58,225 nucleotides of DNA from Gemmatimonadota bacterium. GTDB taxonomy: Bacteria; Desulfobacterota; Deferrimicrobia; Deferrimicrobiales; Deferrimicrobiaceae. The position numbers were made by a program, and so were the translations under genes. Of the stretch, positions 10,231 through 11,766 are shown one piece after another. The stretch is from assembly GCA_050257455.1 (NCBI GenBank), contig JBLMWX010000164.1, forward strand, positions 1-58,225, read 5' to 3'. The notes under the pieces were generated by a model. The model ran no database searches. It saw nothing but the letters and a program-made list of their open reading frames with translations, and was not told the origin of the DNA. Positions within the stretch are counted from its first letter, which is position 1. Each line of letters opens with the position of its first letter.

Positions 10231-11241
10231 TCAGGGGACGAGCACCGCCCGCAGCCGGACCTTCCCTTCCCGCAGAAGATCCAGCACCTCGTTGACCTTG
10301 GCGAGCGGGTGGCGCTCGATCATCGGCGAGATCCCGTGATCCGCCGCGAACCGGAGCATGGCGTCCATATCGTCGCGCGTCCCGATGAGGGACCCCGCGA
10401 TCCGCTTCTGTCCCGTGAGCAGGGCGGCGGGAATGACCTTCGCCGGCTCGGCGATCGCCGCGACCACGACCAGCGTCCCGTTCGGCGCCAGGCCGGCAAT
10501 GCATTGCTCGAAGACCCGTGCCGAGATCGCGGTGACGAGGATGAGGTCGGCCCCCCCCATCGCCGCCAGCCGTTTGCCGACCTTCTCCCTCTCCGCGTCG
10601 ATCGTCTCCCGTGCCCCGAGACGGCGCGCGAGATCCTCCTTGCCGCCACCCCGGAGGATGGCCACCACGCGCGCCCCCATGGCGTCGGCCATCCGGATCG
10701 CCAGGTGGCCCAGCCCGCCGACCCCGGCCACGGCGACCGTCTTGCCCGCGAGATTGCCCGCCCGCCGCAGCGGCGCGAAGACGGTGACGCCGGCGCACAG
10801 CAGCGGAGCCGCTTCCGCGAGGTCCAAGCCGCCGGGAATCCCGTGGACGAACGCCGCCGGGGCCTTGACGAGCTCCGCATAGCCGCCGTTGACCGTCACG
10901 CCCGTGCTCCTCTGCGCGGCGCAGAGCATTTCGGCCCCCGAGCGGCACGGAGCGCACCGCCCGCACGCATACTGCATCCACGGGACGCCGACCGGGTCGC
11001 CGGGCGACAGTCCCGAATCCGGGTCGCCCGCGCGCTCCACCACGCCGGTCACCTCGTGGCCCGGTATGATCGGAAGGGGAGTTCCCCACGAGGCCCAGTC
11101 GCCGTCCACGAGGTGCAGGTCGCTGTGGCAGACCCCGCACGCCCTGACGCGGATCAGCACCTCGCCGGGGCCGGGGGACGGCTCCGGCACGTCCCTCAGC
11201 ACGAGCGGCTTTCCGAACGCCTCGCACACGGCGGCCTTCAT
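10231..11241 (-). CDS. Zinc-dependent alcohol dehydrogenase
   Basis: Start MKAAVCEAFGKPL. GVCHSDLH zinc motif. GVGGLGH Rossmann motif. ATG 11241 overlaps the osmC-like stop (ATGA). RBS GGAGGAG. Confidence 0.9.
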   Translation of the reverse strand: MKAAVCEAFGKPLVLRDVPEPSPGPGEVLIRVRACGVCHSDLHLVDGDWASWGTPLPIIPGHEVTGVVERAGDPDSGLSPGDPVGVPWMQYACGRCAPCRSGAEMLCAAQRSTGVTVNGGYAELVKAPAAFVHGIPGGLDLAEAAPLLCAGVTVFAPLRRAGNLAGKTVAVAGVGGLGHLAIRMADAMGARVVAILRGGGKEDLARRLGARETIDAEREKVGKRLAAMGGADLILVTAISARVFEQCIAGLAPNGTLVVVAAIAEPAKVIPAALLTGQKRIAGSLIGTRDDMDAMLRFAADHGISPMIERHPLAKVNEVLDLLREGKVRLRAVLVP

Positions 11242-11714
11242 CGAATCTCCTCCAGTTCCGTGATCTCCGCCGAGTCCTCGATCGCGATCGCCCCCTTCAC
11301 GCTCATGGCCGCCGGGCACCTCTCGATGTAGTGGCGGAGCGCCTCCCGGGCTTCTTCCGTCTTGCCGGGCGGCACCTTGAGCGTGTATCGCACGCGGATC
11401 TTCGTGATCTTGAGCACCCCGCCGACATCCTCGACGTCCCCTTCCACGTCCGCGCGGTAGCGGTCGCCGTAAGTCGGGATCTTCTTGCCGGCCAGCACCG
11501 TGGCCAGTGTCCCCATCATTCAGCCGCCCACGGCGCCCACGATGTGATCGAGGGTCGCCGCGTGCTCCTTTTCGGGCTCCACCTTGTAGAAATGCTTGAT
11601 CCCCCCGTGGACGCCGTAATAGACCGGCTCGGCGAACCCTTCGATCACCGCCTTCCGGGTCGGCCCCTTCTCCCGCGTGATCGTGATCCGCGATGTGTGC
11701 ACCACTTCCCCCAT
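11238..11714 (-). CDS. OsmC/Ohr-family peroxiredoxin-like protein with in-frame TGA (11520-11522) read as selenocysteine
   Basis: Tracked ORFs 11520-11756 and 11238-11519 are contiguous in the same frame and separated only by TGA. The joined product reads AVGG-[TGA]-MMGTLATVLAG, which aligns with the first active-site Cys of OsmC (AAHAACFSMAL). It keeps the second Cys motif IERCPAAMSV. ATG 11714 has GGGAGG 10 nt upstream. Confidence 0.7.
11488..11507 (-). promoter_or_regulatory. SECIS-like hairpin downstream of the in-frame UGA
   Basis: mRNA reads UGA-AUGAUGGGGACA-CUGGCCA-CGGUGC-UGGCCGG. The stem is 7 bp including one G-U pair. The 6-nt loop contains GGU and starts 20 nt after the UGA. Confidence 0.5.
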
Positions 11715-11750
11715 GATCGCGTTTCCTCCCTTCGACGATTTCCGAGATCC

Positions 11751-11766
11751 TTGCACTTTTGGTGCC
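11751..11766 (-). promoter_or_regulatory. Candidate sigma-54 promoter (GGCAC-N5-GTGCA) for the osmC-like/ADH operon
   Basis: The minus strand reads GGGCACCAAAAGTGCAA, with 10 nt between GG and GC as in the TGGCACG-N4-TTGCW consensus. It lies about 40 nt upstream of ATG 11714. Confidence 0.4.

Follow-up and report, generated by a model that had tools for sequence, protein, structure and literature searches.

Two adjacent open reading frames on the minus strand of the window (the whole stretch of DNA analysed, 58,225 nucleotides of contig JBLMWX010000164.1) very probably form a single intact gene, which is predicted to encode a selenocysteine (Sec)-containing member of the OsmC/Ohr superfamily with UGA codon 65 decoded as Sec. 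The two frames (11756-11520, 78 amino acids, starting at a GTG; and 11519-11238, 93 amino acids) share one reading frame, and the TGA at 11522-11520 is all that separates them. As an initial annotation of this DNA had described, translation through this codon from the ATG at 11714 yielded a product of 158 residues; with U at the TGA it contains the stretches LDHIVGAVGG-U65-MMGTLATVLAG and YIERC133PAAMS. The features of the locus are as follows:

11238..11714, minus strand: complete coding sequence of the putative Sec-containing OsmC/Ohr-family protein, 158 codons plus the stop TGA at 11240-11238 (translation, PF02566, AlphaFold fold, 106 orthologous loci)
11520..11522, minus strand: UGA codon 65, predicted to be read as selenocysteine, at the peroxidatic position (TGA in orthologues, TGC in Cys forms, alignment with Ohr 6d9n)
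11488..11507, minus strand: SECIS-type hairpin (fold, codon entropy, dS, pairing, loss in Cys forms, spacing in selD)
11316..11318, minus strand: TGC codon of Cys133, the presumed resolving cysteine, in the motif C-P-A-A-M-S (invariance and alignment with Ohr 6d9n)
11725..11730, minus strand: Shine-Dalgarno sequence GGGAGG, 10 nt before ATG 11714 (GGAGG-like boxes are similarly placed upstream of the orthologues)
10231..11241, minus strand: zinc-type alcohol dehydrogenase (ADH) gene (Pfam ADH_N and ADH_zinc_N), its own ATG overlapping the OsmC stop (ATGA)

Judging from the sequence, the real start of the gene is ATG 11714 and not GTG 11756, since the former is preceded by the GGGAGG box at 11730-11725 and all orthologues begin with M-G-x-[VIL]-[VI]-H-T-[SA] behind a similar box.

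The source genome (2.4 Mb in 230 contigs, 94% complete, 70% G+C), metagenome-assembled and from an uncultured organism, was searched for the components of Sec insertion, a check that the initial annotation had proposed, and all four were found. The genes selA (540 bits), selB (301 bits, in a 641-codon open frame) and selD (318 bits) and a tRNA-Sec (73.7 bits in Rfam; called SeC with anticodon tca by ARAGORN) each scored above the curated cut-off. The selD gene, which lies outside the window (contig C17, about 1667-2662, plus strand), has an in-frame TGA of its own, in the context SSCAG-U-ASKMG, and the genome therefore certainly uses Sec. TGA is at the same time its commonest ordinary stop, terminating 1592 of the 2532 open frames of at least 400 codons, so that TGA is not a general sense codon in the genetic code used here.

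Codon 65 was TGA in all 106 of the orthologous loci in which it was read, belonging to several phyla (26/26 in the genomes of relatives and 80/80 in the best representative loci). The latter were the best 80 of 518 loci found by scanning species-representative genomes, and are labelled Deferrimicrobiaceae/'Deltaproteobacteria', Thermoanaerobaculia/Acidobacteriota, Actinomycetota and Methylomirabilota. Among 60 related genomes, 25 carried the Sec-OsmC gene, each with a single in-frame TGA and always at codon 65. In a phylum sample of 401 genomes (E <= 1e-20), 50 of 52 matches had the TGA, at identities down to 35%, and one full-length match that did not was a Cys form. The terminal stop of the same orthologous genes varies freely between TGA, TAA and TAG while the internal codon does not, indicating that the latter is specifically TGA and not just any leaky stop.

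A genuine TGC was found at the Sec codon in the Cys-form homologues L133-L136 (L133, L135 and L136 by name), and most of the more distant full-length homologues (29-50% identity) likewise have Cys in this column. The earlier proposal that the TGA falls on the first active-site Cys is thereby upheld, and the alignment with the peroxidatic Cys of Ohr 6d9n described below agrees with it. The best 120 database proteins included 10 full-length proteins with Cys and 8 with 'W'; the 'W' forms are TGA translated under code 4, and one of them, P0009, translates only 'with_TGA=W'. One genuine TGG (Trp) codon was seen, on a JGI metagenome contig (L139:2266-2736) with an intact hairpin; this codon reflects either a sequencing error or a recent mutation of TGA to TGG, which would inactivate the site.

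One possible explanation for a gene split in this way is that the TGA is a real stop, the two halves being either the decaying parts of a pseudogene or two small genes expressed independently. In public gene calls the two halves do appear as separate entries: of the best 120 database matches, 101 are C-terminal fragments starting from Met66/67, as the initial annotation had expected of automatic pipelines, and in an exhaustive search of representatives many fragments were seen to end at residue 64 or to begin at 66. Against a pseudogene or two genes stand the invariance of the TGA in the 106 loci across several phyla, the existence of full-length Cys homologues, and the need for both halves to make up the OsmC fold. 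Moreover, the orthologous loci showed no frameshifts, no extra stops and no decay of the downstream half. For codons 1-64 pairwise dN/dS (Nei-Gojobori) came to about 0.12 and for codons 77-150 to about 0.25, dS being near 1; these values indicate that both halves are translated and constrained by purifying selection. The probability of a pseudogene or of two separate genes is thus negligible, and the reading of one intact gene is retained below.

The initial annotation had also pointed to a SECIS-like hairpin behind the UGA. Its position, 7-bp stem and GGU-containing loop were found as described: 12 nt after the UGA there follow a stem strand CUGGCCA (11507-11501), a loop CGGUGC (11500-11495) and the closing strand UGGCCGG (11494-11488), and the GGU triplet of the loop occupies nt 24-26 if the U of UGA is taken as nt 1. 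The folding energy, on the other hand, is not beyond chance for this 70% G+C genome (z = -0.27; 72 of 200 shuffled sequences folded equally well). The significance of the hairpin comes from its evolutionary conservation and not from its energy. The seven four- or six-fold degenerate codons at positions 69-75 had an entropy averaging 0.22 bits in the 85 distinct orthologue sequences, as compared to 1.53 bits for the 53 codons of this type in other parts of the gene (Mann-Whitney p = 5e-9). Similarly, dS was 0.11 over codons 66-76 and about 1.0 in the remainder of the gene, an approximately ten-fold suppression of synonymous variation over the hairpin.

Stem cells were paired in 95.6% of cases, and in at most 50% when the 3' partners were slid. 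Changes that keep the pairing were U-G to U-A (9), A-U to G-U (7) and G-C to G-U (2), together with one double change, C-G to U-A, in L137. A formal covariation test on this 7-bp stem did not reach significance when compared with shuffled controls, as there is hardly any variation in the stem. In the three TGC (Cys) forms, substitutions destroy the hairpin. A lower helix pairing nt 8-13 with nt 44-49 was also considered and rejected: its pairing was 70-100%, but the positions belong to Gly/Pro codons and the one variable pair is often mismatched. A scan of 11200-12350 against Rfam (E <= 1) returned no match, Rfam apparently including no bacterial SECIS model that fits. In E. coli fdhF the critical bases are G23/U24, two nucleotides closer to the UGA. 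The selD SECIS of the window's own genome presents its GGU loop triplet at nt 24-26 from its UGA exactly as the Sec-OsmC hairpin does, and the same SelB must read both; SelD itself is not related to OsmC proteins, and the stem of its SECIS exceeds that of the Sec-OsmC hairpin in length and stability (-29.9 vs -14.8 kcal/mol). Taken together, the sequence data strongly support the hairpin as a SECIS under RNA-level constraint.

An additional scenario is that the UGA is read through without Sec, either as Trp or Cys by near-cognate or suppressor decoding, or as a result of a genome-wide reassignment of TGA. The translation of some relatives with TGA=W in certain databases and the TGG of L139 could be taken in its favor, but it does not sit well with a genome in which TGA is the main stop, and in which it also ends the Sec-OsmC gene itself. 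Nor does it account for Cys, and not Trp, as the residue that homologues carry in this column, for the complete and intact Sec system, or for a hairpin selected at the RNA level at SECIS distance. We therefore consider read-through without Sec highly improbable. Decoding as Sec is the reading preferred here, and the initial description of the locus as a probable selenoprotein stands on all three of the points that had been named as able to overturn it: the Sec machinery is present, the orthologues are not decayed and their internal codon is uniformly TGA, and the TGA lies in the Cys column.

The joined product scored 47.4 bits against the Pfam OsmC model PF02566 (gathering cut-off 27.5), which places it in the OsmC superfamily. 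It did not fall into any of the three curated NCBIfam families compared, all scores being far under the cut-offs: 15.1 for NF041052 OsmC_like_Se (cut-off 95), 15.2 for the OsmC subfamily model TIGR03562 (85.8) and 14.3 for TIGR03563 SACOL1771 (166). An AlphaFold2 model built on an alignment of 13 sequences (mean pLDDT 80.4, pTM 0.77) was compared to the PDB by Foldseek, and the top 50 matches were all OsmC, Ohr or OsmC-like proteins (prob 1.00, TM 0.43-0.63). The best structural matches were the OsmC proteins of E. coli and Thermus thermophilus (1qwi, 1nye, 1ukk; E 4e-6 to 1e-5, TM 0.54-0.60), and the fold is also shared with Ohr (6d9n, 1zb9, 6eb4; Foldseek prob 1.00). The rmsd of these matches was large, probably owing to the swapped N-terminal hairpin of OsmC/Ohr dimers. 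As modeled, the window protein has the OsmC/Ohr fold.

At the sequence level the relationship to proteins of solved structure is distant. The family profile had no match among PDB sequences at E <= 0.01, and at E <= 10 it found one solved relative, Ohr 6d9n, with a weak E of 0.074. In this weak alignment U65 falls on the Cys of 'SAC*F' and C133 on that of 'VC*PYS', which in Ohr are the peroxidatic and the resolving cysteine, respectively. The window protein differs from Ohr in having Sec for Cys and about 15 extra N-terminal residues, and is only 10-16% identical to it; counterparts of the Arg and Glu that take part in Ohr catalysis could not be assigned in it with confidence. Cys133 was invariant across the 85 distinct orthologue sequences, in agreement with the earlier observation that the second Cys motif (ERCPAAM) is retained.

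From these data the following sequence of events may be proposed. SelB, carrying Sec-tRNA(Sec) with anticodon UCA, would bind the hairpin beginning 12 nt downstream of UGA-65, the loop of which presents GGU, and would deliver selenocysteine at this codon in place of termination. Sec65, predicted to lie towards the N-terminus of the long central helix, at the position of the OsmC/Ohr peroxidatic Cys, would attack a hydroperoxide and be converted to a selenenic acid. This would be resolved by Cys133 to a selenenyl-sulfide, the reduction of which by a dithiol donor would recycle the enzyme. Both the actual insertion of Sec and the peroxidase chemistry are predictions drawn from sequence; a search of sequencing runs returned no RNA runs, only low-share DNA metagenomes.

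The protein may also be a selenoprotein but no peroxidase, its OsmC fold serving another redox role or one in sulfur/selenium transfer, as suspected for YhfA-like members. This would be in line with the low scores that the curated models for OsmC, Ohr-like and OsmC_like_Se proteins give it, with the lack of a solved structure matching the profile at E <= 0.01, and with the several distant full-length homologues that lack the first Cys. On the other side, both catalytic-Cys columns of Ohr are kept, as far as the weak 6d9n alignment tells, and the replacement of Cys by Sec is typical of peroxidatic or redox-active sites. Motif tables of selenoproteins show such replacements at redox sites (PMC1088965). 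We consider a role other than peroxidase unlikely, and peroxidase activity of the Sec-OsmC protein remains the preferred prediction. The distant homologues in question (P0203, P0219, P0223, P0260, P0267 and P0269) have A, D or S in the Sec/Cys column, and some such proteins are also without the second Cys, suggesting that part of the wider family may be redox-inactive.

That OsmC-like selenoproteins had been predicted before, as the initial annotation stated, is borne out by the literature: three sequences from the Sargasso Sea, assigned to COG1765 and with the motif UxxT, were catalogued in 2005 (PMC1088965), and reviews of 2022 and 2026 list the OsmC-like selenoprotein as a single form (PMC9312934, PMC13188914). 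This protein of Zhang, Fomenko and Gladyshev (COG1765/YhfA type) shares with the window protein the PF02566 domain and the existence of Cys homologues; in both, the first conserved Cys column, where the central helix begins, is occupied by Sec, and the Sec codon is directly followed by a bacterial SECIS. It appears to be the type that NF041052 models. The two differ in motif, the window protein having U-M-M-G-T (UxxxT) where the published type has UxxT, and in score, the window protein falling 80 bits short of the NF041052 cut-off; these two differences set its subfamily apart from the curated OsmC_like_Se. They also differ in habitat, since the window clade comes from anaerobes of soil, sediment and groundwater and the 2005 type from marine plankton. 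Matches to NF041052 above the cut-off were absent from every genome of the host family, and the window gene was not among the matches of its own genome; the NF041052-like genes that came near the cut-off in related genomes are distinct paralogues with a C-x-x-T motif.

On balance we lean, if only slightly, towards regarding the window clade as a separate and so far undescribed OsmC subfamily (GG-U-MMGT, ~155 amino acids), distinguished from the 2005 type by motif and NF041052 score. Sec would be its normal state, and an almost invariant 35-nt UGA-plus-SECIS block would probably have spread horizontally among the anaerobic lineages concerned (Deferrimicrobiaceae, Thermoanaerobaculia, Actinomycetota and Methylomirabilota of soil, sediment and groundwater). 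Amino-acid identities of 69-82% were seen for the gene in the loci L072-L132, from metagenome-assembled genomes labelled Thermoanaerobaculia, Actinomycetota, Methylomirabilota and others; the near identity of the 35-nt TGA-plus-hairpin block among them suggests horizontal transfer or, for some of these genomes, mis-binning.

The surroundings of the gene were also inspected. The overlap of the ADH start with the OsmC stop makes ADH the probable second gene of an operon. Such a gene lies -3 to +59 nt downstream of Sec-OsmC (283 nt at one locus) at 36 of the 106 loci, all of them in closer relatives, and is absent from this position in the more distant ones; its linkage is thus weak evidence for the function of Sec-OsmC. 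The other genes nearby, a B12-binding radical SAM protein with DUF4070 (8461-10167, plus strand) and a 1293-aa PilY1-like protein (12309-16190, plus strand), have no evident link to it. Upstream of Sec-OsmC, a candidate sigma-54 promoter (GGCAC-N5-GTGCA, 11766-11752, minus strand) was rejected: the motif was present in one of 80 distinct orthologue upstream regions, so that conservation gives it no support. Many relatives have instead a TATACT/TATGCT box with GCACC behind it. Within the divergent intergenic region of about 590 nt that separates Sec-OsmC from the PilY1-like gene, an A/T-run palindrome, GACGTTTTTTGTC-N8-GACAAAAAAACGTC on the minus strand, was noted at 11835-11869 of the window; its role could be that of an operator or of a bidirectional terminator.

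These results change no concept: the way of decoding and the superfamily are both standard knowledge, and OsmC-like selenoproteins have been known since 2005; they add another case in which Sec would replace a peroxidatic Cys. What they describe is a widespread Sec-OsmC branch that is routinely cut in half by public annotation, with hundreds of its database entries being half-proteins or TGA=W mistranslations. A family model allowing U at codon 65 would mend these entries, and the selenoproteomes of bacteria from anoxic soil and sediment would gain a widespread family. In addition, Sec forms are far more numerous than Cys forms, as seen in the phylum sample, and the clade is therefore a good one in which to study why selenium is retained at sites of this kind.
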